Assembly (NCBI GenBank): GCA_963848545.1
Contig: CAWKEZ010000110.1
Span: 8,979 to 72,978 of the forward strand
Length of the DNA: 64,000 nucleotides
Direction of reading: 5' to 3'
Source: an uncultured Thermoleophilia bacterium
GTDB lineage: Bacteria > Actinomycetota > Thermoleophilia > UBA2241
The notes below the pieces were generated by a model. That model did not search any database. It was not told where the DNA came from and was given only the letters and a program-made list of their open reading frames with translations. Below are positions 1-50,835 of this stretch, one piece after another (the stretch's first letter is position 1; each line of letters starts with the position of its first letter). The position numbers and the translations under genes were made by a program.

Positions 1-1577
<1,577 letters not shown>

Positions 1578-1660
1578 TCATCGGCCCTCGGAAGAAGGCG
1601 GTTGGATTGGGGGGACTCCATCCCCAGTCATTTCACTTTAAGATGCGCGGATAATTCGCG

Positions 1661-2536
1661 TCAAGAGACGGCAGCGACCCATCGGACCGCGGCCTCTTGA
1701 AGCGGGGGCGCCATCGAGAGAAAGATATGGGCGCCGTTTGAGCCGACCTCCAGGGTATTTCCCTGGATTCGCACTCCTGTCATTCGCGACCTTGGGATGA
1801 CAAAAGAATCGACTCCGTATCGTTCGGTGGATTCCATCGGGTCACACAAGTACACCAGCTCAAAGGGGTTCAAAACAAGGAGTTGCCTGCGCTGTGCCTC
1901 ATGACGGGACCTCCCGGGGACGGCTGCAAATGAAGAAATAACCGGGGAGTCCTCTTCAAGCCTGACCAGGGGCTCTTGGAGCAGAACTTTCCATTTGTAA
2001 GGCGGTTCAGCCGTCCACGCCTCGGCACGGGGGACGGGCCGGGCGGATCCTGCCAACCTCTTCCTGAGGCGGAGGAGCGCCGGCTCCATTTCACGGCGTG
2101 CCACTGTATTGTAACGGATGGTCAGCCGGTCCCCAAAGGGCACAAAACTGAGCCGACCGTAGAGGAGGATCGCCACGTCCTCGATTGCGGCCACTTTTTC
2201 CAGGGGAATCGAAATCTTCACCCCTGGCTGTGGTTTTTCCGTCCACAAACCAACCGCCCGATCTCCGAGGGCCAGGACGCTGTTGGGAGAAATCACCTTC
2301 TGGCTGAGCCGCCCGACAGAGCGGACCGCCCATGGGATTATGAATATCTGGCTCAGGTCCTGAATACCGCACGTATCCTCAAGAGGCTCGCGGGCGCCTG
2401 ACGGGATGTCGTCTTCACGGCGAGGAGTGTACGGGTGGCTGGCGCGCTCGCTTTTGAAATAGGAGCCCCCTTCAGCTTCTGTAAATTGGATTTCCCAGGT
2501 CTCGGCAGGATCTCGAGAATGAACGGATTCTTTCAT
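1661..2536 (-). CDS. hypothetical protein (291 aa), no recognisable domain
   Basis: Long ORF on same strand as flanking genes; no motif recognised. Confidence 0.35.
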   Translation of the reverse strand: MKESVHSRDPAETWEIQFTEAEGGSYFKSERASHPYTPRREDDIPSGAREPLEDTCGIQDLSQIFIIPWAVRSVGRLSQKVISPNSVLALGDRAVGLWTEKPQPGVKISIPLEKVAAIEDVAILLYGRLSFVPFGDRLTIRYNTVARREMEPALLRLRKRLAGSARPVPRAEAWTAEPPYKWKVLLQEPLVRLEEDSPVISSFAAVPGRSRHEAQRRQLLVLNPFELVYLCDPMESTERYGVDSFVIPRSRMTGVRIQGNTLEVGSNGAHIFLSMAPPLQEAAVRWVAAVS

Positions 2537-2630
2537 GGCTGTGCTTATATGTACGACGAGGATGTTGCTTCGTCAATCCGCGATCAGCGCAGCACGGAAG
2601 GACCGTCCCGCTGCGAGTCGAGGCAGCCAA

Positions 2631-3893
2631 TCAGTTTTTCCGCCATACGCTCGTTCCCCCGAAAAAGACTTCATCAATCGGGGCAATACCCGGGCGGAAA
2701 GCGAGAATCCCCGGGGTCTCGCCGTCCAGGAGCAGGAAGTCGGCGCGCTTTCCCGCGGTGAGGCTCCCCACCTCGGCGCCGAGCCCGAGAGCATACGCGG
2801 CGTTGAGTGTCGCGGCCGCCAGGGCCTCCGTCACGGAGAGGCCCATCTGCAGCACCGCCAGCCCGAACGCGAACGGCATGGATTCGTTGTACGAGGAGCC
2901 TGGGTTGCAGTCCGTAGCGACCGCCACCGGAAGGCCCATGTCGATCATGGCGCGCGCCCGGGCATACGGCTTGCGCATGCTGTACGCGGTTGCCGGCAGC
3001 AGGACCGCGACGACACCGGCGGATGCCATGGCCCTCAGGCCTGCATCGGAAGAAGCGAGGAGATGGTCAGCGGATGCCGCGCCTGCCTCCGCGGCAAGAG
3101 CTGCTCCTCCCGTGTCATGGAGCTCATCAGCATGGAGCCTGCATCCAAGACCTGCCGCGCGCGCCGCCTGGAGGATTCGCCGCGACTGTGAAAGCTCGAA
3201 AACGCCCTGCTCGCAGAAGACGTCGCAGAAACGCGCGAGTCCCTGCCCGGGCGACGGCAGGGACCATTTCCTGCACAATGAGGTCCACGTACGCTTCCTC
3301 GCGTCCCCTGAACTCGGCCGGCACCGCATGGGCGCCGAGAAAAGTGGCAACGATCCGGGGCGGCGCTTCGCCGGCAACGCTGCGGATGACACGCAGCTGC
3401 TTGAGCTCCGCCTCCAGGGAGAGGCCGTAGCCGCTTTTCACCTCCATTGTGGTCGTTCCCAGCCGCAGCGCGGAGTGCGCGCGGGACAGGGTGGCTGCAA
3501 ACAGCTCCGCTTCAGAGGCCGCGCGCACTGATTCCACGGAAGAGAGGATCCCCCCGCCGGCGCGCAGGATCTCCAGGTAGTCAGCGCCCCTGAGCCGGGC
3601 CAGGAACTCTCTTTCCCGCGGTTTCATAAAACACAGGTGTGTGTGGGGATCCACGAAGCCCGGGATCAGGCACCGGCCTCCGCAGTCCATTTCCGCCTGC
3701 ACGGCGGGCGCGCCTTGCGCGGCAAGCGACCCGAGAACCAATGCCTCATCTCCCACGGAAAGAACCCGGCCGTCGCGGCAAAGGAGGGCGCCTTTCTCCC
3801 ACGATTCGACGCTCCCCTGCTGCTGCCCGCGCAGGGCGCGCCCCGCGTCGGGTGGCGTCCAGATGCGCGCGTTGCGGAAGAGGGAGACGCTCA
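2631..3893 (-). CDS. hutI: imidazolonepropionase (HutI), frameshift ~3245-3255 (CCCGGG run)
   Basis: [15 protein letters not shown]...GRCLIPGFVDPHTHL (amidohydrolase metal site) in ORF 3127..4812 frame; C-terminal FCDVFCEQGVF...LHADEL...DCNPGSS in ORF 2631..3392 frame. Confidence 0.8.
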
Positions 3894-4812
3894 TTGCTCG
3901 CCCTGCCCCAGAAGGTCCAGGAGCCTGAGGTCCAGAGACCTGGGTCAACTCGAAGTCGGCCAGCAGGAGGGAGCGCGCCGCGGCGGCCACGAGCGCTTCT
4001 GCGGGAACCAGGCCGTATATTTCTGTTTCCGCCACCTCGATTCCCCTGGCCGCGGCCTCCTTCCGCACAAGCTCCAGCACCTCGTGCAAGGGATTGATGC
4101 GGAAGTCGGTGACGTTGATGCTGACCTGCACCATTCCCTTGTGCTTCAGCTCCACGCCCACGGCCTTCACGTGGGAAAGGCCGCCGCCGGAAGCGCGGAT
4201 GGTGCGAGCAATAGAACGAGCGCCCGCGATGTCCCTGCTCCGCAGGTTGATGTTGAACGCCACGAGGAATTGCCGGGCGCCGATCACCGTTGCTCCGGCG
4301 CTGGGGTGCACGCGCGCCTCCCCCACGTCCGGGGTGCGATCCGGGTTTCCCATTTCCTTCACAAGCGCTTCAAACTGGCCGCGGCGCACGGCTTCCAGGT
4401 TCCGGCGCTCCGGCCGCAGCGCCGCTTCCTCGTAGAGATAGACCGGCACTCCCGTCTCCCGCGCATAGCGCTCGGCGAAGCTTCGCGCCATGGCCACGCA
4501 TTCCTGCATTGAGATGCCGCGCAGGGGCACGAAGGGGATCACGTCCACCGCGCCGATCCTGGGGTGCGCACCGACGTGAATACGAAGGTCAATCGAGGCG
4601 ATTGCCGCGCGCGCCGATGCCAGCAGCGCATCCTGCAGAGGCCGCGGGTGGCCCGCAAGGGTCACCACCAGGCGGTTATGGTCGGGGTCGGCCCGCCAGT
4701 CCAGGAGGTGGACGCCGCGCGCGCCGCGAAACGGGGCGACGATGGCCTCTATCACCTCCTGCCTGCGGCCCTCGCTGTAGTTCGGCACGCATTGCACAAG
4801 GCTGGGGCTCAT
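3894..4812 (-). CDS. ftcD: glutamate formiminotransferase (FtcD-like formiminotransferase domain), read in-frame into hutI with no stop
   Basis: [24 protein letters not shown]... ~305 aa formiminotransferase N+C subdomains; no stop codon before hutI Met; a TGA exists in +1 frame at ~3955. Confidence 0.65.
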
Positions 4813-6525
4813 GCGCCACCTTCCCCAGTCATGGGGATGACGACCCCTCGCTCCTTCGCCGTCTCGATGGCCTTCTCGTATCCCGCGTCCGCATGGCGCA
4901 GAATGCCGGTGGCAGGATCGTTTCTGAGAACAGTAGTGACGCGAAGCTCACCCTCCGCCGTGCCGTCAGCAACGGTCACCTGGCCGGCGTGAAGCGAGTA
5001 GCCAATGCCGACGCCTCCGCCGTGGTGAAAGGACGCCCAGCTCGCACCCGATGCAACGTTCACCATGAGGTTGAGGAGCGGCCAGTCCGCCACCGCATCC
5101 GTGCCGTCCCGCATGGCTTCGGTCTCCCGGTTGGGAGACGCCACGGATCCCGCATCCAGATGGTCCCTGCCTATCACGATGGGCGCCTTGACCCTGCCGG
5201 AGGCCACAAGGTCATTGAAGATCTTTCCCGCTCTGTCGCGCTCGCCATAGCCCAGCCAGCAGATCCTTGCCGGCAGCCCCATGTGCTTCACGCGAGATCG
5301 GGCCAGGCGGAGCCATCGCACCATCCTGGTCTTGTGCGGGGAAAGCTTCCAGGAGCGCCTCATCGGTTGCGTCGATGTCCTTTGGATCACCGGAAAGCGC
5401 CACCCATCGGAAGGGCCCCTCCCCTTCGCAGAAAAGGGGACGGATGTATGCGGGAACGAACCCCGGGTAGTCGAATGCGTTCGTGACTCCATTTGCCAGG
5501 GCCTGGCCGCGGAGGTTGTTTCCGTAGTCGAAAGCCACCGCGCCGCGCGCCTTCATGTCGAGTATGGCCCGGCAGTGCACTGCCATGGAACGACGCGCCG
5601 CCTCGATGTAGCGCCCTGGATCGGACTTTCGCAGCGCAAGGGCAGCATCCAGGCTCATGCCATGAGGCACGTAGCCCCCAAGCTCGTCGTGCGCGCTTGT
5701 CTGGTCCGTCACCACGTCGGGGATGAACCCCGCCTGGACCATCCCCGGGAGAACGTCCGCGGCGTTGCCCGTCACGGCGATGGAGAGCGGCTTCTTTTTT
5801 TCCGCGGCCTCCCGTGCCATCGCCATCGCGGACGCGAGGTCCTTCGCCACGGTGTCCAGGTAGCCCGTTTCCTGCCTTCTCCTTGTCCGCGCGGCGTCCA
5901 CCTCCACGCAGATCAGCACGCCGTCGTTCATGGTCACCGCGAGGGGCTGCGCGCCTCCCATTCCGCCCAGTCCCGCGCTCACCACGATTTTCCCGGCCAG
6001 AGTCGAGCCGAAATGTTTTTCCGCCAGGGCGCCGAATGTCTCGAACGTCCCCTGCAGGATCCCTTGAGTTCCGATGTAGATCCAGGAGCCCGCGGTCATC
6101 TGCCCGAACATCATCAGGCCCCGTCTCTCCAGCTCGTGGAAATGCTCCCATGTGGCCCAATGCGGGACAAGGTTGGAGTTGGCGATCAGCACGCGCGGGG
6201 ACATGCGGTGCGTGCGCAGAATCCCGACCGGCTTGCCGGACTGGACCAGGAGCGTCTCATCGTCGCCAAGGTCAAGAAGGCTGGTCACCAGGGCGTCGAA
6301 GCAGCGCCAGTTGCGGGCGGCCCTCCCCGTCCCGCCATACACGATGAGCTCGTCCGGCTTCTCAGCGTTGCCCGGGTCCAGGTTGTTGCACAACATCCGC
6401 AGGGCCGCCTCCTGGTGCCACCCCTTGCAGTGCAGCTCCACGCCTCGTGGCGCCCGCACAGGCCGCGCTGCCCCGCTCCCGATACCGAGCTCGGCCAGAA
6501 CCTTCTCCCTTGCTGAACCGCTCAT
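4809..6525 (-). CDS. hutU: urocanate hydratase (HutU), frameshift ~5335
   Basis: N-part ORF 5212..6525 ([13 protein letters not shown]-binding) and C-part ORF 4809..5492 ([14 protein letters not shown]...IVIGRDHLD...SPNRETE) overlap in different frames. Confidence 0.85.
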
Positions 6526-6616
6526 GTATAGCCTCCTCGTGAATCCTACGGCGGCTTCTTCTCAGGCGGGTAAAGTACTCAGATATGCCTCAACCACTTT
6601 TGGGTTTTTGGCCAGA

Positions 6617-7285
6617 TCAGCGGCCGGGCCTTCGAGGATCACCCTGCCCCGCCTCGAATACGTAAGCCCGGTCCGCCGCCTCCAGCGCAATGCGCGCATT
6701 CTGCTCGGCAAGAAGAATAGTCTTCCCCTCTGCATGGAGCTGTGCAAGCACCTCGAACAGACGGTCCACCACGACGGGGGCGAGGCCGAGGGAGATTTCG
6801 TCCGCCACGATCACGGAAGGGTCCAGAGCGAGAGCGCGTCCAAGTGCGAGCATCTGCTGCTCCCCGCCGCTCAGGCTTCCGGCGGTCTGCGTCCTGCGCT
6901 CGGCGAGACGGGGAAACAGCTCGTACACTTCACCAAGGACCTCGCGTTCCCTTTTTCCTGAAAGACGCGACGAGGTCACACGCAGATTCTCCTCCACACT
7001 CAAGTCCGGGAAAACATGGCGCCCCTCGGGGACATACCCGATTCCGAGCTCGACGCGGCGAAATGCTGGAATCTCGAGAAGGGAGCGGCCGCAAAAGGTC
7101 GCCACACCCGTTGCCTTCACGAGACCCATAAGACACTTGAGAAGGGTCGTCTTGCCCGCCCCGTTCGCGCCGACGATCGCAGTAAAGCTTCCCCTTGCCG
7201 CTTCGATGGCAACGTCGTGGAGTACGGGGATTCTTCCATATCCCGCGTGGAGGCCCGAAACCGACAGCAGTGCCTCTGCCCTCAT
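6617..7285 (-). CDS. livF: branched-chain amino acid ABC transporter ATP-binding protein LivF
   Basis: Walker A GANGAGKTT, ABC signature LSGGEQQML, 222 aa. Confidence 0.8.
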   Translation of the reverse strand: MRAEALLSVSGLHAGYGRIPVLHDVAIEAARGSFTAIVGANGAGKTTLLKCLMGLVKATGVATFCGRSLLEIPAFRRVELGIGYVPEGRHVFPDLSVEENLRVTSSRLSGKREREVLGEVYELFPRLAERRTQTAGSLSGGEQQMLALGRALALDPSVIVADEISLGLAPVVVDRLFEVLAQLHAEGKTILLAEQNARIALEAADRAYVFEAGQGDPRRPGR

Positions 7286-8074
7286 GGCCTGTTCCCTTCG
7301 CCGGCCTTCGGGCGGGCCGATAGAGAGCCCTCTTTCCCGAGATATGCGCCGATCACCCGCTTATCGTTACGCACCTCCTCGGGGATCCCTTCCGCGATCT
7401 TCCTCCCCTCGTCCAGGACGACGACACGGTCGGAGAGTGACAGCGCGAGGCCGACGTAGTGCTCCACCAGCATGACGGTGAGCCCCGAACGCTGCACACT
7501 CCGAATGAGCTCCGCGAGCGGCCGTATCCCATCCGCGCCTATGCCGGCGGCAGGCTCGTCGAGAAGGAGAAGCGACGGGCGGCTCGCAATGGCCCGGGCG
7601 ATCTCCAGCCGTCGCAGCTCGCCCATGGTGAGCGCGCCCGCGCGGCGCTCCGCCTGCGCCGACAGACCGACCTGCTCCAGCACCTCGTCGACGCGCTCCG
7701 CGATGGAGCGGTTGCGGCCACACGGCGCAAGGCAGCGGAGCGTGTGGAGGATGTTTTTGCCCGCGGCCGAGACCCGGATGTTTTCCCGGACGGTCATCGA
7801 GGAAAAGGGACGCGGGACCTGGAAGCTGCGCCTGACGCCGAGGTGGCTCATGCGCGCCGGCATTGTGCCCTGCACCTCCGTGCCGTCGAACAAGACCTTG
7901 CCGGAGGTGGGCTTGAGCGCCCCGGCAATCACGTTGAAAAGGGTCGTTTTGCCGGCGCCATTCGGGACCGATCACGGCGAGGAACTGCCCCCGCTCGACG
8001 GAAAGGTCGATGGCGTCAAGCGCCTTGAGGCCGCCGAAGCGCACGCACAGGTCCGTGATTTCCAGGAGCGCCAT
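7282..8074 (-). CDS. livG: branched-chain amino acid ABC transporter ATP-binding protein LivG, frameshift ~7940 inside Walker A
   Basis: MALLEITDLCVRFGGLKALD... then GP|NGAGKTTLFNVIAGAL restored only by removing one C from CCC at ~7940; C-part in ORF 7282..7932. Confidence 0.8.
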
Positions 8075-9008
8075 GGCTCTTACGACCTCCCCATGCCCGA
8101 GCCTCCCTGGCGGGGGCCCGGAAGCTGCTTCCGCGAGCGGGGCCAGGGCCATTCCAATGGAGGCGCGACGCCGCGCTCGCTTCCCCAGCCAGACCTTGCG
8201 GCTGGAAACGCAGCATGAGGAGGAGAATCACCCCGAAGGTGAGAAGCCGGAAATTGGAGATGAACCTGAAAGCTTCGGGAAGGGCTCCCAGAATGAGCGC
8301 GCCAAGAAGCGCGCCCCTGATGGTGCCGATTCCTCCGAAAATGAGCATCGAAAGTATGACGACTGATTCGGTGAAACCAAAGCTCGAGGGGGTTATCGCG
8401 CTCAAGAAGGGCGCATATATGCTTCCCGCCATGCCCGCGAAGGCGGCACTCAGCGTAAAGGCGGCCACCTTGTAGGAGGCAACGGGAATACCGACGGACG
8501 AAGAAGCGCTCTCGTCGTCCTTGAGCGCCGTCAGCGACGCCCCGAGCCAGGTTCGCTCCAGGTACTTGCTCGACGCAACGACGAGGGCAAGCATGCATGC
8601 GGCCACCAGCAGAAAGTCCGGATTGCCGAACTGCCGTCCCCCGATGGTCGGCAAGGGGATCGAGTAGATTCCGACCGCTCCCCCGAAAAACGGCACGTAC
8701 TGGAATATTGCGACAACGACGAAGTTGAGGCCGATGGTGGTGATTGCGAGAAAGTCCTCGCGGAGCCGCAGGCTGACGGCGCCGAGGATGAATCCGGCCA
8801 TGCCGGCGACGCTGAAGGAGATCGGTATGGTCAACCAGAAACTGAGATGATAACGGGTTGACAGCACGGCCGCGAAGTAGGCGCCCAGCCCGAGAAAAGC
8901 GCTCTGCGCGAGATTGGGTTGGCCGGCGTAGCCCACGACCATGTTGAGAGCGACGGTAAGCATGGCGTAGATCATGATGGTGACGCCAATGACGATGACG
9001 TAGCTCAC
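8016..9008 (-). CDS. livM: branched-chain amino acid ABC transporter permease LivM (C-terminal tail atypical, possible frameshift/extension)
   Basis: Multi-TM ORF with LivM-like motifs (GYAGQPNLAQSAF..., RFQPQGL); last ~50 aa Arg/Pro-rich and overlapping livG start. Confidence 0.7.
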   Translation of the reverse strand: MSYVIVIGVTIMIYAMLTVALNMVVGYAGQPNLAQSAFLGLGAYFAAVLSTRYHLSFWLTIPISFSVAGMAGFILGAVSLRLREDFLAITTIGLNFVVVAIFQYVPFFGGAVGIYSIPLPTIGGRQFGNPDFLLVAACMLALVVASSKYLERTWLGASLTALKDDESASSSVGIPVASYKVAAFTLSAAFAGMAGSIYAPFLSAITPSSFGFTESVVILSMLIFGGIGTIRGALLGALILGALPEAFRFISNFRLLTFGVILLLMLRFQPQGLAGEASAASRLHWNGPGPARGSSFRAPAREARAWGGRKSHGAPGNHGPVRALRRPQGA

Positions 9009-9874
9009 CGCGTCCCCCTGGGGCCGGGAAGCAGGCCCTGGGGCCGCACGAGAAGTATCGCGATAAGGACGATGAAGGCTATTGCGTCGCGCGGCAGCAC
9101 GAAGCCGGCATACATGACGACGAAAGTCTCCACCAGCCCTATGAGCATCGCGGCCGCGATGGTCCCCAGTGGATTGCCAAGGCCGCCGAGGACGATGATG
9201 GCCAGCATCTTGTACGCCGGTATGTCACCCATCGTGGGGTATACCGTATTGTAGTTTATCCCGAGCATGATGCCCGACACCGCGGCAAGGGAGTAGCCAA
9301 TGACGAAGATGGAGGCGATCACTGCGCGCGTATTGATGCCCATCGCTTCGGCCGTCGGCCCGTCCTGCGAGGTGGCGCGCCAGAAAAGTCCGAGTCTTGT
9401 CCGGCGCAGGGTGAACCAGGTGCCAGTCAGGACGACGCAACCGATGATGAGTATGAGAAGCTGAGCTCCCGTGATGACCGCCCCTCCCAGGCGGAGCGTG
9501 CGCAGGGGAACCCGCGCGGGGAAGGCCAGCGGATAAGGCCCGAACACGAGTCGGAAGGCCTCTTCCATCGCGATGAAAGTCCCGATACTCGCGATCAGGG
9601 GAATGAGGGGTCCTCGATTCAAGATGGGCCGGTACAGGAACCGTTGCAGCCCAAGGCCGAAGAGGGCCGAGGCCACTATCCCTGCGCCGAGGCCCAGGAG
9701 CAGCGAACCGGTGACTCTCCAGATTTTCAGACCCACATAGGCGCCGAGGGTCAGCCCTGCAGCGTTTGCGATGTCCAGAACGCGCAAAAGTCCGTAGATC
9801 AGCGATGGGCCAAGGGCGATCAGGGCGTAGAGCGAGCCGGTCGCAATGCCGTTCAGCAGGCTGGATAAGAACAT
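9005..9874 (-). CDS. livH: branched-chain amino acid ABC transporter permease LivH
   Basis: 289 aa polytopic ORF, 4-nt overlap with livM, LivH-like N-terminus MFLSSLLNGIATGSLYALIALG. Confidence 0.8.
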   Translation of the reverse strand: MFLSSLLNGIATGSLYALIALGPSLIYGLLRVLDIANAAGLTLGAYVGLKIWRVTGSLLLGLGAGIVASALFGLGLQRFLYRPILNRGPLIPLIASIGTFIAMEEAFRLVFGPYPLAFPARVPLRTLRLGGAVITGAQLLILIIGCVVLTGTWFTLRRTRLGLFWRATSQDGPTAEAMGINTRAVIASIFVIGYSLAAVSGIMLGINYNTVYPTMGDIPAYKMLAIIVLGGLGNPLGTIAAAMLIGLVETFVVMYAGFVLPRDAIAFIVLIAILLVRPQGLLPGPRGTR

Positions 9875-9932
9875 CCGGTCTTCTCTTTCGCCCTGACCTC
9901 ACTCACGTGGCCGCTTTGTGCTCCTGCGAGGA

Positions 9933-11097
9933 CTACGGCGTGATGACAGCCGGATCATCCACGATACCGTAATGATGGGGTAACCCGTCCTTCACGATCT
10001 GCAGCTCCACCGCCTTCACGACCTCCCCGGTGGCGTTGTACTTCATGATGGTGCCCGTCACGCCGACGAAATCCTTGACGCTTGCAATGCCTTGCCTGAT
10101 TTGGCCCGCGGCGGTTCCCCTGGCCATGGCGTTCTTGAGCACCAGGAAGGAGTCGTACGTGGTGGCGCCCACCATGTCTGGTGCGTAGCCATAGGCCGCC
10201 GTGAAGCCTTTGATGTAATCGACAACGACCGGTTCCATGCTGTCACGATTGAAGGGCGTCGTGAACACGAGCCCGTTGGCCTGGGCCCCGACCGGCTGGA
10301 AGAACTGGGTCGTTGAGTCCACGCCCTCCGTTCCGACGATCGGGAGCGAAAGGCCGAGAGTGTTCCAGTTGTTCAGGAACTGCTGTCCCTCGGAATAGTA
10401 CTCGACCATGAAATAGCCAGTTGCGCCCTTGGCCTGGTCGCGCATGAGTATGGGCGTGAAATCCTTCTCGCCGAACTGGTTGAAGTCCGTTGCGACGACC
10501 GTTGCGCCGAGCGCTGCGGCCTCGGCCGTAAAGCCTTGAACGAGCGCGGTCCCGAAGTCGTTCTTGATGGCGACGATCGCGATCTTCGTCACGCCGAGGT
10601 CCTTGACAAGAGCCACGGCGGCGGCCTTGCCTTCGACCACTCCGTTGAAATCCTGCTGGAAGATGAAGCGTCCGGTCGCGGGAATGCCGGGGTTGACCGC
10701 GTACGCGGCGAGCATCGGAATGCCGTTCCTCTGGAAGATCGGGGCGGCCGCAAGGGTCTGGTCGCTGTAGGAGCCGCTTACGACAGCGTCGACCTTGTCC
10801 TGGGTGACGAGGCGGGTGGCAATGCTGACCGCCTGCTTGGCGTCGCTGGCGTCATCGTAGTTGATGAGCTGGATCTGCCTGCCATTGATGCCGCCTGGCC
10901 TTGTTGATGTCCACCACGGCGAGCTTCGCTGAGTCATAGGCGCTCTGCCCGTCAGCCGCAGCGAAACCGGACTCGGGAGCGAAAAAGCCGATCTTGATGG
11001 GAGCGCTGCTGCTGGCCGATGGGAAGCTCACGAGGGCTGCAACGACAAACAGCGCCATCAGAGTGAGCCTGGGGATGTACCCGTGCGATTTTTGCAT
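9933..11097 (-). CDS. livK: branched-chain amino acid ABC transporter substrate-binding protein (LivK/LivJ family), frameshift ~10890
   Basis: Signal peptide MQKSHGYIPRLTLMALFVVAALV + IKIGFFAPESG (ORF 10852..11127) continues as GGINGRQIQLINYDDAS... (ORF 9933..10937) after removing one base; RBS AGGAGGG upstream of ATG 11097. Confidence 0.8.
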
Positions 11098-11293
11098 CTC
11101 TTCCCTCCTGTTTCCATGACGTAGCACGGCGCATGCAACGGGACGTGGAGGCCCGCCGCCCTGATCCTCAACGAGGCTGGGTCGGTCGTCTGCGCCGGGC
11201 GGATTGCACTATTTCAGGATTGAAGCACCGTTCCACACTAACACCGGGTAGTTGCGGGGTCAAGTTTGGCTCGCGACTCTGGGCGGGTAATTT

Positions 11294-11600
11294 TCACCCG
11301 CTCCCGAACACAGCCGCAGTCTCTTTCAGGAAAGTGCGGATCGGGATCCCCTGCGGGCACAGGTCCTCGCACTGTCCGCACTCCGTGCACGCGTCAGGTT
11401 TCCCCACGATTCGGGTGTAACCGGTAAGCCAAGGGTCCTTCGTATTCCACATTGATGAGGCATTGAGCGCCGCCATCAACTCGGGAATGGCCACGCCTTG
11501 CGGACACGGCTGGCAGTAGCGGCACGCGCTGCAGTCCACCTTCATCCGCGCTTGCATTGCGGTCCGCGCGGCGTCGTACACGGAAAGGTTCCCCGGCGTC
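11294..11600 (-). pseudogene. C-terminal fragment of an aldo/keto reductase-ferredoxin fusion oxidoreductase (2x CxxCxxCxxxCP), 5' end missing
   Basis: ...KVDCSACRYCQPCPQGVAIPEL...DACTECGQCEDLCPQGIPI...; upstream part of ORF 11294..11848 is antisense to Fic and non-homologous. Confidence 0.5.
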
Positions 11601-11639
11601 AGAGTACTGGGCTTGGCAACGTCAGGCGCGGCGAGATCG

Positions 11640-12433
11640 GCATGGCCAGAACGCCAGGCGAGCTGCGCACCTCGCAGAACTGGATCGGACCGCCCGGTTC
11701 CACGCTGGCCACGGCGACCTACGTGCCGCCCCCCGTGCTCGCCATGCGCGAATCGCTCGCGGCCTGGGAGGTCTTTCTGCGCGAGCGCGGTACCCTGCCC
11801 GACCTGGTGCAGTGCGCGATGGTGCACGAGCAGTTCGAGGCCATTCATCCGTTCGTGGGGGGAACGGGCGCCTGGGCCGCCTGCTGGTCACGCTGTTCCT
11901 CATCGAGCGCCGCCGCTTGACCCGCCCGCTGCTGTATCTCTCCGCCTACCTCGAAGGCCACCGCGACGAGTACTACGCGCTCATGCAACGGGTACGCACC
12001 CATGGGGAGTGGGTCCCTTGGTTGCTGTTCTTCGTCACAGGCGTACGCGAGACGGCGGAACGGGCCACCCGCCAGGCACGCGCTCTCGTTCAGCATCACG
12101 CTCGCCACCGCGGGCTGGTGAAGGGCCGCGCCCTGGCCCTTGCCGACGAGCTCTTTCGCACGCCCTGCATGACCGTGCCCGAGGCCCAGCGTGTCCTCGG
12201 CGCGACCAACCCCACGGCGCGCCGCGCCGTGGGCGAGCTGCTCGAGAAGGGGCTGCTCGAGGAGTGGGGCGAGGAGCGCCGGCCGCGCGTGTACCTGGCG
12301 CGGCACGTCCTCGACGCCGTGCTGCGCCCGGTCGAAGACTTGCGGCAGCTGCCCGGGGCAAAGGCTCAGGGCGCGGTGGTCAAGTCGGCGGCCGGCGAGC
12401 GCCAGGCGCCAACCAGCCGAGGCGACCGCATGA
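11640..12433 (+). CDS. Fic-family protein with C-terminal wHTH, N-terminally truncated, frameshift in Fic motif (~11870, GGGGGG run)
   Basis: PGELRTSQNWIG...HPFVGGNGRLGRLLVTLFL (HPFx[DE]GNGR motif restored by deleting one G); no upstream Fic N-domain; +1 frame has TGATGA double stop exactly at 12431-12436. Confidence 0.6.
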
Positions 12434-13275
12434 TGACCGAGGCCATGGCTCTCATAGACGCCGCCCGCGGGCACGGCGTGCAGCTGCGGCTCACCGGCGG
12501 CCTTGCAGTGCGGCGCTACTGCACCGATCTCGGCTTCATCGACCGGGAGTACTCAGACATCGACCTGGTAGGGCTCTCGCACCAGCAGCGCGAGCTCCAC
12601 GAGGTGTTCACGGCGTTGGGGTACACCCAGAACCGCTACGTGACCCAGGCCACCGACGCGGCGCAGCTGCAGTACATCAAGACGGAGACCTTGGTGCCGC
12701 ACGCGTCGACGCCCGGCGCGAGGACGCCCACGGCGGAGAAGCGCGCGGCGGAGCCGCCGCTCTTCGACCACGCCGACGTCTTCATGGATGTGATGCGCAT
12801 GGACCACGACGTCGATGTTCACGAGCGCCTGGATATTGACGACTACGCCATCTCTCCTGTGGACGCCTTCACCGCCAAGATGCAGATCGGCAGGATCAAC
12901 CAGAAAGACGTGCACGACATCATCGCCCTCGTGAAGGACGTGCCGCTCAGCGAGGTTGGCGACGACTCGTCCATCGATGTGCCGTACCTCGCCGAGGTGT
13001 GCGCCCACGACTGGGGCATCCACCACGACATCACCACCAACCTCGAGGTGGTCATCGCCAGGCTTGACGACTACGGCCTCTCCGAGGAGGAGGTCGCCAG
13101 GGTGTACGGGCGCCTCGCCTCGCTCAGGGAGGCGATCGAGGATGAGGACAAGTCGCTGCGCTGGTGGCTACGCGCGCGCGTCGGTGAGCGCGTCGCCTGG
13201 CGTCGCGAGGTTGAGGAGACCGAGGGTACGCAGGTGATCGCTCCCGAGTGGGATTGGCGGCGCGACCTGGGATAA
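12430..13275 (+). CDS. pol-beta-type nucleotidyltransferase, AbiEii/DUF1814-like (tentative)
   Basis: ATG at 12430 embedded in ATGATGA; LTGGLAVRRYCTDLGFIDREYSDIDLVG fits hGG...DxD NTase motif; 281 aa. Confidence 0.5.
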   Translation: MMTEAMALIDAARGHGVQLRLTGGLAVRRYCTDLGFIDREYSDIDLVGLSHQQRELHEVFTALGYTQNRYVTQATDAAQLQYIKTETLVPHASTPGARTPTAEKRAAEPPLFDHADVFMDVMRMDHDVDVHERLDIDDYAISPVDAFTAKMQIGRINQKDVHDIIALVKDVPLSEVGDDSSIDVPYLAEVCAHDWGIHHDITTNLEVVIARLDDYGLSEEEVARVYGRLASLREAIEDEDKSLRWWLRARVGERVAWRREVEETEGTQVIAPEWDWRRDLG

Positions 13276-13721: not shown

Positions 13722-14411
13722 TCACCAGCCGATACGCCCGCCGTCGCGGGCGCACTTCTCGCGACAGATCTGCGTGATCGCCCGCCGCACCGCGCGGCCG
13801 ATGAGCCAGCCAGCGGGCGTAGCGGGCCCCGCGTACGAGAGTTCCTCGCCGCGCCCAGTACAGGCGATCACCACGGAATCGGTCGACGTGCCGCTGGCCG
13901 GCTCCCCGGCGTCGGTGCGTACGTCCCACTCGGCGAGGGTCATGGTCTTCGCCTCGGTTGCCGTGATGACGGCGTTCACCATGGCGGCGGGGGTGAGGGC
14001 GGCATCGACCAGCAGGATGGTGTTGATCGTCCCGGGACGCGCGGGTGCCGGCGGCGTGACACCGGCGCAGCTGGTGTTGCTGAGCCCCAGGGAGACGGCG
14101 GCGGCGACCGTGATCTGGCGATCGTTCTCCATCGCCACGCGGGCGAACTCCGTGCCGGCCGCGGTCATGAGGCCGACGAACGCCCGGTCGACGCCGGCCT
14201 GCACCGCGAACGCCTCCAGATCATCCGCGGGACGCCCGCCGTCGTACCCCTCGCCGACGTGCATGTTCACGATATCGTGCACGTGACTGAGGCCGCCACC
14301 GATCACGGCCGAGCTCAGCACGGTGAGTGGGTGCCGGCTGGTCACGCGCAGCGCCGTCTCGTCGATGATGACGAAGACTCCCTCGATGCCGGTATCCGGG
14401 GTTAGGGCCAC
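13722..14411 (-). CDS. cbiZ: adenosylcobinamide amidohydrolase (CbiZ family)
   Basis: 229 aa, CbiZ-like motifs (GVFVIIDETALRVTSRHPL..., GTINTILLVDAALTPAAMVNAVITATEAK). Confidence 0.55.
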   Translation of the reverse strand: MALTPDTGIEGVFVIIDETALRVTSRHPLTVLSSAVIGGGLSHVHDIVNMHVGEGYDGGRPADDLEAFAVQAGVDRAFVGLMTAAGTEFARVAMENDRQITVAAAVSLGLSNTSCAGVTPPAPARPGTINTILLVDAALTPAAMVNAVITATEAKTMTLAEWDVRTDAGEPASGTSTDSVVIACTGRGEELSYAGPATPAGWLIGRAVRRAITQICREKCARDGGRIGW

Positions 14412-14426
14412 GGCGGCAATTCTAGC

Positions 14427-15263
14427 TCAGGGTCGCGGCTCGGTGCTGGCCGCCTCGCCGCCGGCCTCTCGCCGCAGCGAACGTGCGGTGCCCAAGAGCG
14501 AACCGAGCAAGATCAGCGGCATGCCCACGGCGATGCCCGCCGTGAGCGGTTCGCCGAGCAGCAGCACGCCGAGGAGCACCGCTACCAGAGGGTTCACATA
14601 GGTGACGATCGTAGTGCGCGACGGGCCTACCTCACGGATGAGAGCGAAGAAAAGGATGAAGGCAAGGGCCGTGCAGACGACGGCCAGACCGGCCACCGCG
14701 GCCACAACCTGGCCCGAGACGGCCGCCGGCGCGTAGTAAAGCCCGGCCGGTGCGTAGACCGCGGCGGTGACCACCAGCGAGGCGGTAACTACGCCCAGAC
14801 TGGGCAAGCCGTCAAGCCGCCGGCTGACGATCAGCGGGCCGCTGGCATAGCACAGCGCCACGACCAGCACTTCTGCGGCGGCCAGCGGCTGCGCGCCGCC
14901 CACGTCGATGCCCACCAGCGCCGCCACCCCGGCAAAACCGATCACGAGCCCGGCGAGACGGCGGGCATCGAGATGGTCGCTCACGCCTACGGCGCGATAG
15001 AGCAAGGCCGCGATGAGTGGCACCGAGGCGACGAGCAGCCCGGCCATGGAGCTCGTCAAACGCTCCTCGGCGTGCGAGAGGAGCAACCAGGGCACGGCGA
15101 GCTCGATGGCCGTGTAGGCGAGCACCCAGCGCCAGCGGGCGAGGAGCGCGCGCAGCTTGCCGCGGCGAAGGGCCAGCGGCATGAGCATGAGGGCCGCCGG
15201 CGCCGTGCGAAAGAACACCAGCGTCGGCGGGGACAGCTCGCCGACCGCCACGCGGATGAGCAT
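14427..15263 (-). CDS. EamA/DMT-family transporter; first TM helix encoded in-frame upstream (to ~15335) without a canonical start
   Basis: 10-TM-like ORF; upstream in-frame RKGWLLFIALCLIWGTPYMLIRVAV is a typical DMT TM1 but preceded by stop with no ATG/GTG/TTG. Confidence 0.65.
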   Translation of the reverse strand: MLIRVAVGELSPPTLVFFRTAPAALMLMPLALRRGKLRALLARWRWVLAYTAIELAVPWLLLSHAEERLTSSMAGLLVASVPLIAALLYRAVGVSDHLDARRLAGLVIGFAGVAALVGIDVGGAQPLAAAEVLVVALCYASGPLIVSRRLDGLPSLGVVTASLVVTAAVYAPAGLYYAPAAVSGQVVAAVAGLAVVCTALAFILFFALIREVGPSRTTIVTYVNPLVAVLLGVLLLGEPLTAGIAVGMPLILLGSLLGTARSLRREAGGEAASTEPRP

Positions 15264-15570
15264 GTAGGGTGTGCCCCAGATGAGGCACAGGGCGATAAAC
15301 AGCAGCCAGCCTTTGCGAGACAGGGCGCCACTCCCTCGGGTATATGTGTGGCCGGCGCGGGCCGGTCACGGCGGCCGGAGGTGTGAGAAGAGTGTATGCG
15401 CTTGGCCGCGGTGGCGCTGACTGGTGTCTACAGAACGCTCCTTGCGTGGTGGAGGCAAAGGGGCTATCGTTTATAGTTCGTCTGGCGTCCGCCGTTCCGG
15501 CGCGCCGCCTCCGCTACAGAAGTGGCCCCACCACGGGCCGAAGCACGCGACAACGGGCAGGAGACGCCGA

Positions 15571-16689
<1,119 letters not shown>

Positions 16690-16795
16690 CCGACGCAGTC
16701 GGGTCGGCGTGCGGGGCGCCGCAAGTGCACCGCACGCTGGACTTGGCCGGACCGTTGCGAGGCGGTAGACGGGGAGGCGTGATAGCGTCTCCCCC

Positions 16796-18526
16796 ATGAA
16801 GATCGCGCTTCTGCAGATCGATCCCACCGTCGGCGACCTGGATGGCAACGCCGATCTGCTGCTGGAGGCCGCCGGCGTGGCGGCGCGTGCCGGCGCCCAC
16901 TTGGCGGTTGCCTCCGAGCTCTCGCTGCTCGGGTATCCGCCGCGCGACCTGCTGCTGAGCCGCTCGTTCGTGGAGCGCAGCTGGGAGACGTGCCACGCGC
17001 TGGCCCGCGAGCTGGCGCAGGGGCCACCTCTCATCGTGGGGCTGGCCGAGGCCAATGAGAGTCAGAGCGGACGGCCCCTCTACAACGCCGCCGCCCTCTT
17101 GCGGTGCGGACAGGTGCAGCAGGTCTTCCGCAAGACGCTGCTGCCCACCTACGACGTGTTCGACGAAGACCGTTACTTCGAGCCGGCCGCCGGCCCGCAG
17201 ATCCTGGAGTGGGGTGGACCACCGGTCCAAGAGCCGGACGTGGCGCACAGGGGGCCGGCACGGCCGCCGCCGCAGAGGCTCGGCGTATCGGTGTGCGAGG
17301 ACGTGTGGAACGATCGCGACTTCTGGCAGCGGCAGCGCTACCACAGCGATCCTCTCGAGGACCTCGCCGAGGCCGGCGCCACCTGCGTGGTCAATCTCTC
17401 GGCTTCGCCGTTCACGATTGGCAAGCAGCAGCATCGCGAGGCCATGCTCGCGGCGATCGCCGGCAAGTACGGTCTGCCGGTGCTCTACGTGAACCAGGTG
17501 GGCGGTGCCGACGAGCTGGTGTTCGACGGGCGCAGCTGCGCCTTTGCCGCCGGCGGTGAGCTGGCGGCGCGCGCCGCGGCCTTCGCCGCAGATGTGCTGG
17601 TGGTCGACCTGGACGAGCTGAGCGGCGCGGCCCCCGCTCCCACCCTCTCCGCCGACGACTTCGCGGCGCCCTCCGAGGTGTGGCGCGCGCTGGTGCTGGG
17701 CGTAAGAGACTACGCCGCCAAGAGTGGCTTCCGGAGCGCCCTCCTGGGCCTCTCGGGAGGCGTCGACTCGGCCGTCGTGGCGGCGGTGGCGGCCGAGGCT
17801 CTGGGGCCCGACAACGTCCTCTGCGTGCTCATGCCGTCGCCCTACTCCAGCGCCGGCAGCATCGGCGACGCGCAAACGCTCGCCGACGGTCTCCGGGTAC
17901 GCACCGTGACGGTGCCCATCGCCGAGATCATGGGTAGCTTCGAGCACGCCCTGGCTCCCGCCTTCGCCGGGCGCGCCGCCGACGTCACCGAGGAGAACGT
18001 GCAAGCGCGTATCCGCGGCAACCTGTTGATGGCGCTCTCGAACAAGTTCCATTCTCTGCTGCTTACGACGGGTAACAAGTCGGAGCTGGCGGTGGGGTAC
18101 TGCACCATCTACGGCGACATGTCGGGTGGCCTCGCCGTCATCTCCGACGTGCCCAAGACGCTGGTGTACCGGATAGCGCGCTGGCTCAACGAGACGCGTG
18201 GCCGCGAGGTGATCCCGCCGGCGATCATCACCAAGGCGCCGTCGGCCGAGTTGCGACCCGACCAGACAGACCAAGACAGCCTGCCGCCCTACGACGAGTT
18301 AGACGCCATTCTAAGGCTGCTCATCGAGGAGCATCTCGGCGCCCGGGAGATCGTGGCGCACGGCCATGATCCGGCCACCGTGGAGAGAGTGGTGCGGCTG
18401 GTGAGCACCGCCGAGTTCAAGCGCAAGCAGGCGGCGCCCGGCCTCAAGGTCACCGACCTGGCGTTCGGGATGGGCTGGCGCATGCCGATCGCCACCATGC
18501 CGCGCGCTCGCCGCCATGCCCGCTGA
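16796..18526 (+). CDS. nadE: glutamine-dependent NAD+ synthetase (nitrilase domain + NAD synthetase domain)
   Basis: 576 aa; N-terminal CN-hydrolase (MKIALLQIDP...) and C-terminal SGGVDSAVVAAVA PP-loop. Confidence 0.9.
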   Translation: MKIALLQIDPTVGDLDGNADLLLEAAGVAARAGAHLAVASELSLLGYPPRDLLLSRSFVERSWETCHALARELAQGPPLIVGLAEANESQSGRPLYNAAALLRCGQVQQVFRKTLLPTYDVFDEDRYFEPAAGPQILEWGGPPVQEPDVAHRGPARPPPQRLGVSVCEDVWNDRDFWQRQRYHSDPLEDLAEAGATCVVNLSASPFTIGKQQHREAMLAAIAGKYGLPVLYVNQVGGADELVFDGRSCAFAAGGELAARAAAFAADVLVVDLDELSGAAPAPTLSADDFAAPSEVWRALVLGVRDYAAKSGFRSALLGLSGGVDSAVVAAVAAEALGPDNVLCVLMPSPYSSAGSIGDAQTLADGLRVRTVTVPIAEIMGSFEHALAPAFAGRAADVTEENVQARIRGNLLMALSNKFHSLLLTTGNKSELAVGYCTIYGDMSGGLAVISDVPKTLVYRIARWLNETRGREVIPPAIITKAPSAELRPDQTDQDSLPPYDELDAILRLLIEEHLGAREIVAHGHDPATVERVVRLVSTAEFKRKQAAPGLKVTDLAFGMGWRMPIATMPRARRHAR

Positions 18527-29593: not shown

Positions 29594-29670
29594 GCCCTCG
29601 TAGCTCAGGGGATTAGAGCGCGCGCCTCCGGAGCGCGAGGTCGAAGGTTCGAATCCTTCCGGGGGCACCA
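29594..29670 (+). tRNA. tRNA-Arg (anticodon CCG)
   Basis: Cloverleaf folded by hand: acceptor GCCCTCG/CGGGGGC, D-stem GCTC/GAGC, anticodon stem CGCGC/GCGCG with loop CTCCGGA, T-arm GAAGG-TTCGAAT-CCTTC, discriminator A + CCA. Confidence 0.85.
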
Positions 29671-35042: not shown

Positions 35043-36397
35043 CAGGCTGCTGAAGAAGCGGCCTTGGAGTTGCACCGATGCCGGGCGGAGCCGCAGTGAG
35101 CCGGCAACGGGCTGAGCTGAGCGCGTTTCGGGCTCGCAGGAAGGGCCCGTGGGGCCCGTTCCCGGCCCCTTGCCTTACGCCGGAGACGGCTCCGCCAGCA
35201 GCGTTCGCAGGCGTACCAGGTTGTAGGCGGCGCAGGCGAAGGTGAAGACTGCGGCCGCCTTGGCCTTGCCGCGGTGGCGCAGCTTGCGCAGGCCGCCGAC
35301 CGTCTTGATCCAGCCGAAGGGTTCTTCGACCAGTTTGCGGCGGCGCTGGCTGACCGCGTAGCCGTCGTGACGCGTCGTGCGGCGGTCGACCGCGCTGAAG
35401 CGGTCCTTGGCGGCGACGTGCGGGGTGATCTTCAGGGCGCGCACGCCGGCGACGAAGTCCTTCGTGTCGTAGCCGCGATCGGCGCCGACGCTCATGCGCC
35501 CGCGCCTGCGGCGCCGCTGGCGTCGAAGCAGCCGCAGGCCGGCCTCGCGCTCGGCGGTGCCGGAGGCCTCGGTCAGCTCGCAGTCGACGATGAGGCCGTT
35601 GCGGTTCTCGGTCAGGCTGTGGCCGGCGTAGCAGAGCTTGGCCGCCTGGCTGTCGCCCTTGCGCGCGAGACGGGCCTCGGGGTCCGTGGTCGAGCGGTGG
35701 CTGGCGTTGCCGCGCCGCTCGCCGCGCCAGTCGACCTCGGGGTTGCGGCCGCCGCCGTGCGGCGCCGGCGGCTCCTCGTCGTCCCCCTGCTCGATCGGCC
35801 GCAGGCTCTTCAGCGAGGCGGCCGCCTCGATGAGCGTGCCGTCGAGGGAGAAGTGCTCGCGGCTGAGCAGCTTGTGCGCCTCGGCCTGAGCGCGGATCGC
35901 TTCGAAGAAGGCCTCGGCGACCTCGGCGGTGAGCAGGCGGTCACGGTTCTTGGTGAAGGTGGTCGGATGCCAGACCGGCTCGTCCAAGGGCAGGCCGACG
36001 AACCAGCGCAGGAGCAGGTTGTAGCGGAGCTGCTCGCAGAGCCGGCGCTCGGAGGGTATGGCGTAGAGGATCTGGATGAGCTGGGCGCGCAGCAGGTACT
36101 CGGGGGCGACCGAGGGGCGGCCGCGCTCGGCGTAGAGCGCGTCGAGACTGGGCCTCATCTCCTCGAGGGCGACGTCGACCAGCGCGCGGATGCCACGCAG
36201 CGGATGGTCGTCCGGTACGACGTCCTCGAGCGTAGTCAGCACGATGAACCCCGCCTGCAGCTCCTCGTCCCCGCGCACTGCGCCACCTCCCCGTCGCCTG
36301 CCTGTAACGCGCACAGTAGCAGCTTCGAGGCGACACGCGAGACCACCTCCGCGAGGCTCTCGCAGAGCTTGAAGCGGGGCTATTTTCAGCAGCCTGC
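35043..36397. mobile_element. IS5-family insertion sequence (~1.35 kb) with ~17-bp terminal inverted repeats and 4-bp CTAG target-site duplication
   Basis: Left end CAGGCTGCTGAA... (35043) and right end ...TTCAGCAGCCTG (36397) are reverse complements; CTAG at 35039-35042 and 36398-36401. Confidence 0.75.
35175..36279 (-). CDS. IS5-family DDE transposase
   Basis: GTG start with GGAGGTGG RBS; LTTLEDVVPDDHPLRGIRALVD...LYAERGRPSVAPEYLLRAQLIQILYAIPSERRLCEQLRYNLLLRWFVGL... and DDE core. Confidence 0.8.
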
Positions 36398-36522
36398 TAG
36401 CGCCGCACTGGCGCGTCTCCCCGACGCCTTTAAAGCGTCGCCCGCCGCTCCACACCCTCAGGCCCGTCGCGGCCGCTGCTTTCAACCTCCGTGGTGGAGC
36501 GCCCAGGCGAGTGTCGCGCGGG

Positions 36523-37270
36523 CTACCTCGGGCGAGCGCCGAGCCGCGGTGGCCGCCCTCGCGCAGGGTGATGAAGCGCGTTGGGCTCGGCCAGCACGGC
36601 CGCCAGACGGAGGCTGTGGGCGAAAGGCACGTCCTCGTCGTCGCGGGCGTGCACCAGCAGCACGCGCGGCATCCCTCGCGCGATCTCGACCAGATCGAGG
36701 CGGCGCAGGAACGGTCGCAGCACGGCGCGGCGAAGCGGGGCCGTACTCGCCACTCGCCGCGGGCGTCGGCCCACCACTCCGCGGCTGCGCGGCGCGCCTC
36801 ATAGGCGGCGAGGCCGGTCAGCAGCGACGCCCCGTCGGCCGGGCAGAGCAGAACGAGCGAGCGGAACAGCGCTGGATGAGCGTGAGCGGCGAGCAAGAGG
36901 AAGCAGGCCCCCATGCTCGCTCCACGGGCTGCCAGCCAAGGCACCCCGCTCGGCCCGCAGGAGCAGCCGGCCGGCGGCGACCGCGTCGTGCCAGACGTCT
37001 GGCCCCAGCACACCCTGGCTCTCGCCGTGGCCGCGGAAATCGAAGGTCAACACCGCGAGCCCGGCAGCGGCGGCCTGCTCACCCATCAGGGTGTGGTTCT
37101 CCTTGCGGCTGCCGGCGCCGTAGCGCGCGAGCCATGCTCCGCGTGGCGGACCATCGAGTCGAAAGAGCAGACCGGCCAGCTCAAGACCGTCGCAGGGGAT
37201 CGTGATGCGCGCGGGCGGCCGGGCGTTCTCGGCTCCGGCCGGCCGGGCGTTCTCCGCCTTGCGGGCGCTG
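36523..37270 (-). pseudogene. alpha/beta-hydrolase (dienelactone-hydrolase-like) gene split over three frames
   Basis: N-part ...ITIPCDGLELAGLLF...VLTFDFRGHGESQG, nucleophile elbow GASMGACFLLLAAHAHP, C-part PRVLLVHARDDEDVPFAHS each in a different frame. Confidence 0.5.
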
Positions 37271-50107: not shown

Positions 50108-50122
50108 CACGACCAACGAGTG

Positions 50123-50168
50123 GCGAGGGGCCGCGGCGGTGTCGACAGACACCGCCGCGGCCCCTCGC
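50123..50168 (+). terminator. strong GC hairpin (21-bp stem, GACA loop) after nuoF-like gene
   Basis: GCGAGGGGCCGCGGCGGTGTC-GACA-GACACCGCCGCGGCCCCTCGC. Confidence 0.5.
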
Positions 50169-50243
50169 CGCGCACTGCCTCTGGGGCCGCTGCGGCCGGA
50201 TTTGCGCATCGTGTGCGAAATGGCGGTGGATCAGGGCGCTATG

Positions 50244-50288
50244 TAGGAATCGGCAATATGCGTTTTTCGCACGTTGCCGATTCCTACA
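50244..50288. promoter_or_regulatory. perfect 14-bp inverted repeat (GTAGGAATCGGCAA-N17-TTGCCGATTCCTAC) in AT-richer region upstream of lrp
   Basis: Direct reading of sequence; followed by TTGACA-like -35 at ~50303. Confidence 0.4.
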
Positions 50289-50369
50289 AAGGGTGCCTTC
50301 CCCTTGACATTTTCCGACGCTGGGTATCGAAATAGGCGGGCGGAATTGGCGCGTGACCAGGGGGGTCGA

Positions 50370-50835
50370 ATGCCATTCAGTCTCGACGCGATCGATCGGA
50401 AGATCGTGCTCTCCTACTCGAAGACGGTCGCGTGTCGTCGGCCGAGATAACACGGCGCATCGGCCACGTGTCGGAACGGGCCGTGCGCTACCGGATCGAG
50501 CGTCTCATCCGCTCTGGCGTGATCCGCGTCAGCGCCATAGTCAATCCGCAAGCGGTGGGCTTCTCGGTAATCGGCGACGTGCTCATCGACGTCGCTCCCG
50601 GCAAGCTGCAAGACGTCGCCGCCCAACTCGTTGAGATCCCGACCGTCAGCTACCTGGCGGGCTCCGTCGGCGAGGGCGACCTCAGCGTGCAGGTGTACGC
50701 CCGCGACACGGAGGAGCTCCTGCGCTTCGTCAACGAAGTGATCGGCAAGGTTCCGGGAGTCACGCGCACAAAGCTTGCCATGGTGCCGTGGAAGCTCAAG
50801 GACGTGTATCAGTGGCAGGTTCCCGTTGGAGGCCG
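50370..50835 (+). CDS. Lrp/AsnC-family transcriptional regulator, frameshift ~50415; no stop before downstream permease in this frame
   Basis: MPFSLDAIDRKIVL|...EDGRVSSAEITRRIGHVSERAVRYRIERL (HTH) ...RAM domain. Confidence 0.65.

Follow-up and report, generated by a model that had tools for sequence, protein, structure and literature searches.

A public contig that probably joins Spirochaetia and Thermoleophilia DNA through an assembly error

The stretch of DNA analysed here (the window, 64 kb in full) changes its apparent source between nucleotides 11625 and 11626. Judged by comparison with related sequences, this join is very probably an assembly artefact (we place the probability near 90%), that is, a cross-phylum chimeric contig assembled from a Spirochaetia and a Thermoleophilia population. 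The original prediction, made from the letters of the window, had proposed either a mis-join of two contigs or a genuine insertion or island boundary. The mis-join is supported: the two sides belong to different phyla, and each parent genome runs intact through the breakpoint. The insertion or island boundary is much less likely, the hallmarks of an island being absent. The features discussed below are collected in Table 1.

Table 1. Features on either side of the join, in window coordinates.
Feature	Position	Strand	Basis or remark
Breakpoint	11625..11626	none	nucleotide-sharp, without filler, without common k-mer, ≤1 nt microhomology
Spirochaetia-type segment	1..11625	none	extends past window start
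Thermoleophilia-type chromosomal segment	11626..64000	none	L004/L006 identity and synteny, tetranucleotide signature, Pfam
AKR-Fer4 gene, 3′ fragment (codons ~273–382 and stop)	11294..11625	-	Pfam Fer4_9/Fer4_17, tblastn
Fic_N-Fic-nucleotidyltransferase-like fusion gene, 3′ fragment (codons 143–687)	11626..13275	+	Pfam Fic match, tblastn, homologue alignment
G6 homopolymer, 1-nt deletion relative to L004	11857..11862	+	ORF list, L004 gap at 11863, tblastn frame switch 11857–11869
Inserted A (example of a private indel)	10896	-	three-way alignment; Peripla_BP_6 match split

Results

The junction

The alignment of the window to its left-hand relative, contig L001, stops at 11625, and the alignments to the right-hand relatives L002, L003 and L004 begin at 11626; in 50 of 76 related Fic loci (from MAGs of Thermoleophilia and other Actinomycetota), the DNA alignment to the window also starts exactly at 11626. 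Beyond the join the parental sequences (L001 on one side, L002, L003 and L004 on the other) each run on differently. The breakpoint lies inside the reading frames of both adjoining genes, at residue 273 of an AKR-Fer4 oxidoreductase and residue 143 of a Fic protein, in each case in the middle of a domain.

A search for k-mers or microhomology common to both sides, and for repeats around the join, returned only chance 8–16-mers. The tRNA scan found no tRNA at the junction (the sole tRNA of the window is at 29594–29670), and no mobility genes are located within 23 kb of it (the sole transposase is at 35175–37013); the hallmarks of an island boundary, that is, an integrase or recombinase, a tRNA or att target, and flanking direct repeats, were not found at the junction. 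Records at NCBI and ENA place both the window's enolase, a frameshift-scrambled protein of 447 aa (P0366), and its NadE (P0241) on a contig of 75,121 bp; the join is therefore a property of the deposited contig and not an artefact of cutting the window.

Two truncated genes

As had been predicted, two genes are truncated at one point: both have lost their 5′ parts, and the remaining fragments abut, pointing away from each other. The first is the AKR-Fer4 gene, for which L001 encodes an intact homologue of 382 aa (Aldo_ket_red, residues 16–275; Fer4, residues 303–365). When this protein was searched against the window with tblastn, only residues 269–382 were found, and residues 1–268 are absent from every frame of the 64 kb; the claim that the oxidoreductase is reduced to its C-terminal ferredoxin part is thereby upheld. 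The fragment lacks a promoter and the entire AKR barrel, and its Pfam matches are to Fer4 families alone, with none to the (beta/alpha)8 barrel family PF00248; because the barrel is wholly missing, no functional oxidoreductase is encoded. The only open reading frame that covers the ferredoxin part is on the minus strand (11294–11848); its matches are exclusively to ferredoxin-family (4Fe-4S) proteins and are confined to the last ~80 residues, while the 74 codons at its start lie antisense to the Fic gene. No exact protein match was found for the 184-aa frame that spans the junction.

The second gene is read on the plus strand, where the Fic frame begins near 11,630 and, after a frameshift, continues as one long open reading frame that ends at 13275. 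Full-length relatives are ~384 aa, or 687 aa with a nucleotidyltransferase-like domain fused at the C-terminus; L004 encodes an intact homologue of the longer type (Fic_N, 42–123; Fic, 129–235; NTP_transf_5, 382–544, a weak match), and the continuation of the window's fragment into the nucleotidyltransferase-like domain is the usual architecture among its relatives. Aligned to full-length homologues, the fragment starts at approximately residue 143–148; it shares 86–90% amino acid identity with the L004 protein, spread over two frames, and lacks all of Fic_N as well as the first ~14 residues of the Fic domain. No match to Fic residues 1–139 was obtained by tblastn anywhere in the window. The original prediction of a Fic gene without its N-terminal domain is therefore correct as to the truncation, which begins at codon 143, but not as to the spacing: the two fragments had been placed ~40 nt apart, and the gap between them is 0 nt. 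Relative to L004, the deletion in the G run shifts the frame within the catalytic HPFxGGNGR motif, which is encoded as HPFVGG in one frame and NGRLGR in the next; an intact Fic core with HPFx[D/E/G]GNGRxxR in a single frame (PF02661) is not present in the window's fragment.

These observations bear on whether the Fic and ferredoxin reading frames might be naturally short, intact genes. Some database homologues of the Fic protein are indeed called at 327–333 aa without Fic_N; however, these calls are fragments in error-prone contigs, and in the DNA the gene continues upstream of the called start. In the window, homology on both sides ends at one nucleotide, in mid-domain, and neither fragment has a start or promoter context of its own, the ferredoxin frame borrowing its first codons from the antisense strand of Fic. 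The upstream continuation, the mid-domain ends and the tblastn results refute naturally short genes, to which we assign next to no weight; intact N-termini, for which the other frames and the rest of the window were also searched by tblastn, do not occur, so the truncations stand.

The parents of the two sides

The genes of the left segment encode enolase, proteins of histidine utilisation (urocanase, FTCD and an amidohydrolase), a Liv-type ABC transporter, and the 3′ end of AKR-Fer4. Through an exact protein match of the LivH-like gene we reached L001, a 40-kb metagenome contig (ENA ERZ25039519 contig_15662), and we also compared L005, a contig of 265 kb from a second, independent assembly (ERZ25039501 contig_21624). 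Window positions 1–11625 align to positions 8251–19851 of L001 with 97.65% identity and to L005 with 97.37% identity; the identity to these relatives is >99.5% except in one divergent patch (6500–8000). Both contigs are colinear with the left segment and continue past the breakpoint with the AKR-Fer4 gene and its neighbours intact. In the databases the L001 enolase is labelled ‘MAG: Spirochaetia bacterium’, and the nearest named enolases are those of Spirochaetia (86–90% identity).

The right segment encodes CMD, CbiZ, EamA, an RpoD-type sigma factor, NadE, two-component proteins, FtsEX, CtpB, RNase R, SmpB, a tRNA-Arg, one IS, trehalose genes, FTHFS and GatAB, among others. By way of its NadE gene (16796–18526) we reached L004, a contig of 809 kb that shares its sample with L001; the deposited name of L004 and L006 is ‘uncultured Thermoleophilia bacterium MFD04492.bin.1.102’. 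The window and L004 have 82–90% DNA identity and a common gene order from 11626 to at least 26311 (the Fic fusion, CMD, EamA, the RpoD-type sigma factor, NadE, a histidine kinase and response regulators, FtsEX and CtpB); L004 has an intact Fic gene, with UPF0182 upstream. The N-terminal 142 residues of Fic are encoded in 69 of the 76 related loci, including all 42 that have full flanks, and in none of the 76 is there any trace of the left-type segment. The gene upstream of Fic varies among the relatives (UPF0182 in four of the 42 fully flanked loci), so the locus appears to be rearrangement-prone in nature.

Each side of the window is thus colinear with a different genome, uninterrupted past the breakpoint (L001 and L005 on the left; L004, L006 and 69 other loci on the right), and the taxonomy of the genes shifts at the join from a Spirochaetia-type enolase and contig to a Thermoleophilia-type NadE, Fic gene and synteny. 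In the comparison of synteny that the original prediction had proposed, neither L001 and L005 nor L004 and L006 have the arrangement found in the window, and their genes are intact.

With two sets of parents in hand, an intragenomic event in one organism, with the compositional step representing an older genomic island, becomes highly improbable. A single deletion or inversion could truncate two genes back-to-back; however, the two sides match genomes of different phyla, each with its own nadE and its own neighbourhood, the left being 99.5% identical to Spirochaetia MAG contigs and the right 82–90% identical to a Thermoleophilia contig, and the lost halves of the genes are nowhere in the 64 kb.

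The same comparisons weigh on a real and very recent transfer between phyla, in which a Thermoleophilia chromosome would have gained 11.6 kb or more of DNA from the core chromosome of a spirochaete. The route would be illegitimate, homology-free recombination, with the end of the insert inside the Fic-nucleotidyltransferase gene and the incoming DNA ending inside the AKR gene. Since L004 and L001 come from one sample, the Spirochaetia and Thermoleophilia organisms co-occur, which speaks for such a transfer; the variable context upstream of Fic is also in its favour, as is the join itself, which offers no common k-mer to account for a graph-based mis-join. Against it, the >99.5% identity to the donor population would require a transfer across phyla in very little time; the DNA concerned is chromosomal, with housekeeping and catabolic genes (enolase, hut genes, an ABC transporter); and mobility genes, tRNA, att-like repeats and microhomology are lacking, as is any related locus among the 76 that carries part of the left segment. 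A 40-nt pattern that spans the junction also has no match in 185,579 species genomes or in the JGI metagenomes, which is weak evidence, the relevant project being at ENA. We consider a transfer of this kind very unlikely, although not quite so unlikely as an intragenomic event.

Composition across the join

The original prediction had described GC as ~50–62% upstream of the join and ~70% downstream. The step is real, but its size was overstated: the mean of the left 11.6 kb is 62.9% (0.56–0.68 in 1-kb windows), and the right side has 65–69% per 10–11-kb chunk (0.60–0.74 in 1-kb windows). Locally, GC climbs from 0.58–0.64 to ~0.70 between 11.4 and 11.7 kb, and the GC3 of likely genes is ~0.75 on the left vs ~0.87 on the right. 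We rejected GC alone as a discriminator, since in places within the right side it falls to 0.60–0.62, comparable to values on the left.

Oligonucleotide composition, for which a tetranucleotide comparison had also been proposed, switches at the same point. With tetranucleotide signatures normalised for base composition, the left segment correlates at 0.85–0.91 with non-overlapping parts of L001 and L005 and at 0.54–0.68 with chunks of the right side; the latter correlate at 0.87–0.95 with L004. A 4-mer likelihood-ratio classifier, trained solely on sequence outside the window, gives positive values for each of the 21 windows on the left (mean +50) and has a mean of −25 on the right; its sign changes between the windows 11001–12500 and 11501–13000.

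Frameshifts and sequence quality

In a three-way alignment of the left 11.55 kb with L001 and L005, 11 single-base indels are private to the window (10 insertions), both within and outside homopolymers, compared with one such indel private to each of L001 and L005. Most of the genes on the left are split by the window's private indels (e.g., the inserted A at 10896 breaks the gene for a substrate-binding protein into the reading frames 9933–10937 and 10852–11127). The window's private substitutions on the left have a different character, with 138 of 187 coding sites at the third codon position; this bias implies that the left segment evolved as working spirochaete genes, and by its pattern of substitutions the segment reads as the genuine DNA of a third spirochaete strain, shaped by purifying selection.

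In favour of a transfer between phyla, the frameshifts in the left-hand genes might be taken as the decay of useless foreign DNA. Substitutions of the kind left by purifying selection together with 11 frameshifts that break most of the genes are, however, contradictory under natural evolution and are what read error is expected to produce; the combination is best read as consensus error rather than decay.

The idea that only the left side is of low quality was dropped, as the right side also carries frameshifts and split genes (folD, gatA and an HMGL-like gene). A codon-step detector that finds frameshifts ab initio called 6–7 events in the left 11.6 kb and 11–13 in the right 52.4 kb, with only 1–2 in the adjacent region from 11.6 to 37 kb; compared with L004, the part of the window from 11.6 to 26.3 kb has just one frameshift within a gene, that in the Fic motif. 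The detector recovered six of ~9 known events on the left (370/380 and 8133/8160 each counted once), and its seventh call (9021, with a laxer penalty) matches no known indel. A step in sequence quality at the join is suggested, with a moderate contrast in error density that is clear only when the left is compared with the adjacent 11.6–37 kb.

Discussion

How the join may have formed

Because no sequence is common to both pieces at the join, the collapse of a repeat is unlikely, and the join probably arose from a chimeric read, of which ligation-based Nanopore libraries produce a small proportion. In the mechanism that we favour, two fragments would have been ligated in library preparation, or otherwise read as one, and the resulting chimeric long read used to extend a contig. 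The ‘truncated genes’ would then be merely the places where each fragment happened to end (AKR codon 273 and Fic codon 143), and the single-base frameshifts on both sides, including the deletion in the Fic G run and the inserted A, would be residual errors of the long-read consensus.

The related contigs derive from the Microflora Danica long-read project, which used Nanopore reads only, assembly with metaFlye, and a single Medaka polish (PMC12313526). The window's own contig presumably belongs to the same project, given that two contigs of that project are nearly identical to its left side.

Significance

The biological weight of the junction is small, as the mis-join very probably accounts for both the truncated genes and the GC step. 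Its practical value is as a quality-control flag on a public contig that very probably mixes at least 11.6 kb of spirochaete genes with otherwise Thermoleophilia sequence, or the reverse. The misplaced genes include the single-copy enolase, the hut pathway and the Liv-type transporter, and a chimera of this kind can distort metabolic reconstructions, contamination estimates, the inference of horizontal transfer, and protein databases, which already list the window's scrambled enolase as a separate entry. Such joins can be diagnosed without reads, given sibling assemblies of both parent populations. Were the junction real, an inter-phylum transfer would have been observed almost as it occurred.

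Comparison with known systems

The two gene fragments can be placed in known families by what they retain. Compared with AKRs that have a C-terminal 4Fe-4S ferredoxin domain (PF00248 and PF13187), the 110 residues kept by the AKR-Fer4 fragment are 96% identical to the C-terminus of the L001 protein and include both Cys clusters; unlike those enzymes, the fragment has no barrel (residues 16–275). Compared with the Fic_N-Fic protein adenylyltransferases (PF13784 and PF02661), the Fic fragment retains most of the Fic core, the HPFxGGNGR region and the helical/wHTH part, but it is without residues 1–142 and is frameshifted inside the motif; also, the family to which it belongs carries the fused C-terminal nucleotidyltransferase-like domain. 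The nearest model, NCBIfam NF046030, scores the fragment at 154 bits, far below its cut-off of 550.

The junction shares with the boundary of a genomic island a sharp compositional step, a change in the taxonomy of the best hits, and a disrupted host gene. It differs from such a boundary in having no integrase, tRNA target, direct repeats or mobility genes; in its cargo, which is core chromosome of another phylum with >99.5% identity to the donor; and in that the incoming DNA is itself cut in the middle of a gene, with one boundary seen within the window.

The closer likeness is to assembly chimeras. Long-read metagenome assemblers, metaFlye among them, have been documented to produce contigs that merge phyla; such contigs can be recognised by an abrupt change in GC, coverage and gene-level taxonomy, and the same assemblies contain indels that disrupt open reading frames (Trigodet et al., bioRxiv 10.1101/2025.04.22.649783). 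The window resembles these cases in its shift of GC, k-mers and taxonomy at one point, in the merging of two phyla, and in related data that are of the metaFlye type and carry indels disrupting reading frames; it differs in the kind of diagnosis, which for Trigodet et al. was 100% read clipping with a coverage step and here is comparative evidence alone.

Sequence anomalies on the Spirochaetia-type side

The segment of the window flanking positions 6500–8000 is >99.5% identical to L001 and L005, two metagenome contigs that are colinear with the Spirochaetia-type side; the 6500–8000 patch itself is ~10% divergent, with a 25-nt insertion (6540–6564) and 152 substitutions private to the window, of which 109 affect third codon positions. 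The patch looks like the product of homologous recombination between strains of the spirochaete population, or of a strain-mixing consensus. On the same side, the enolase gene contains a G inserted at 370 and at 380 and a T deleted at 133; these changes yield a 447-aa product that has a separate entry (P0366) in public protein collections.

Both parental genomes encode a glutamine-dependent NAD synthetase on the same strand (L001, 1–1163; window, 16796–18526), in each case 5–7 kb from the breakpoint position. The conserved sequence common to the two genes is limited to a 56-nt stretch, so we treat the pairing as a coincidence.

Uneven consensus quality on the Thermoleophilia-type side

Split genes and frameshift-like events also occur on the Thermoleophilia-type side (table). 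The ab initio frameshift detector identified ~10 events in 37–64 kb vs 1–2 in 11.6–37 kb, which indicates that the consensus quality of the contig is uneven. An IS-type transposase gene is located exactly at the divide between the 'clean' 11.6–35 kb and the error-rich 37–64 kb; the assembly could conceivably have gone wrong a second time here, at the repeat, for example by a strain switch. The comparison with L004, the syntenic Thermoleophilia contig, covers this side up to 26.3 kb.

With the 4-mer likelihood-ratio classifier, a few 1.5-kb windows on this side are weakly 'spirochaete-like' (maximum, +28); they fall where GC is lower, around a gene for an AsnC-type regulator, and probably represent ordinary local variation.

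Features in the window
Feature	Position	Strand	Description
Enolase ORF	201–1544	−	reading scrambled from ~residue 387
Divergent patch	6500–8000		livG/livF-type ATPase genes, start of urocanase
Fic fusion gene	11626–13275 (fragment); L004, 2702–4765		
IS-type transposase	35175–37013	−	612-aa ORF, DUF772 + DDE_Tnp_1
folD	~47113		split/frameshift-like event
gatA	~58562		split/frameshift-like event
HMGL-like/homocitrate-synthase-like gene	~61448		split/frameshift-like event
Further events	37597/37697, 48032, 51758/51846, 63314		frameshift-like
Weakly spirochaete-like windows	50001–51500; also 29–33 kb, 54.5–57 kb		

Gene content and the Fic fusion

The window and L004, its closest relative, differ in gene content. 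A CbiZ gene (13722–14411, minus strand) lies between the CMD and EamA genes in the window; it is also present at this place in L002, a contig with related Fic loci, and is absent from L004. Conversely, the rpoD–nadE interval in L004 contains MarR, DUF5996, and glyoxalase genes (7759–9940) that are absent from the window (16692–16737).

The C-terminal domain of the Fic fusion also has a stand-alone paralogue in the window (53643–54449; 26% identity), which adjoins a metallophosphoesterase-like ORF. Among MAGs of Actinomycetota, Thermoleophilia included, the fusion is a single 687-aa ORF, that is, Fic_N-Fic followed by a C-terminal nucleotidyltransferase-like domain whose match to PF14907 is weak and under the cut-off. 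This architecture is kept in at least 69 loci, and L002 encodes the fusion twice (9921–11572 and 15037–16660), with the copies separated by 5 kb.
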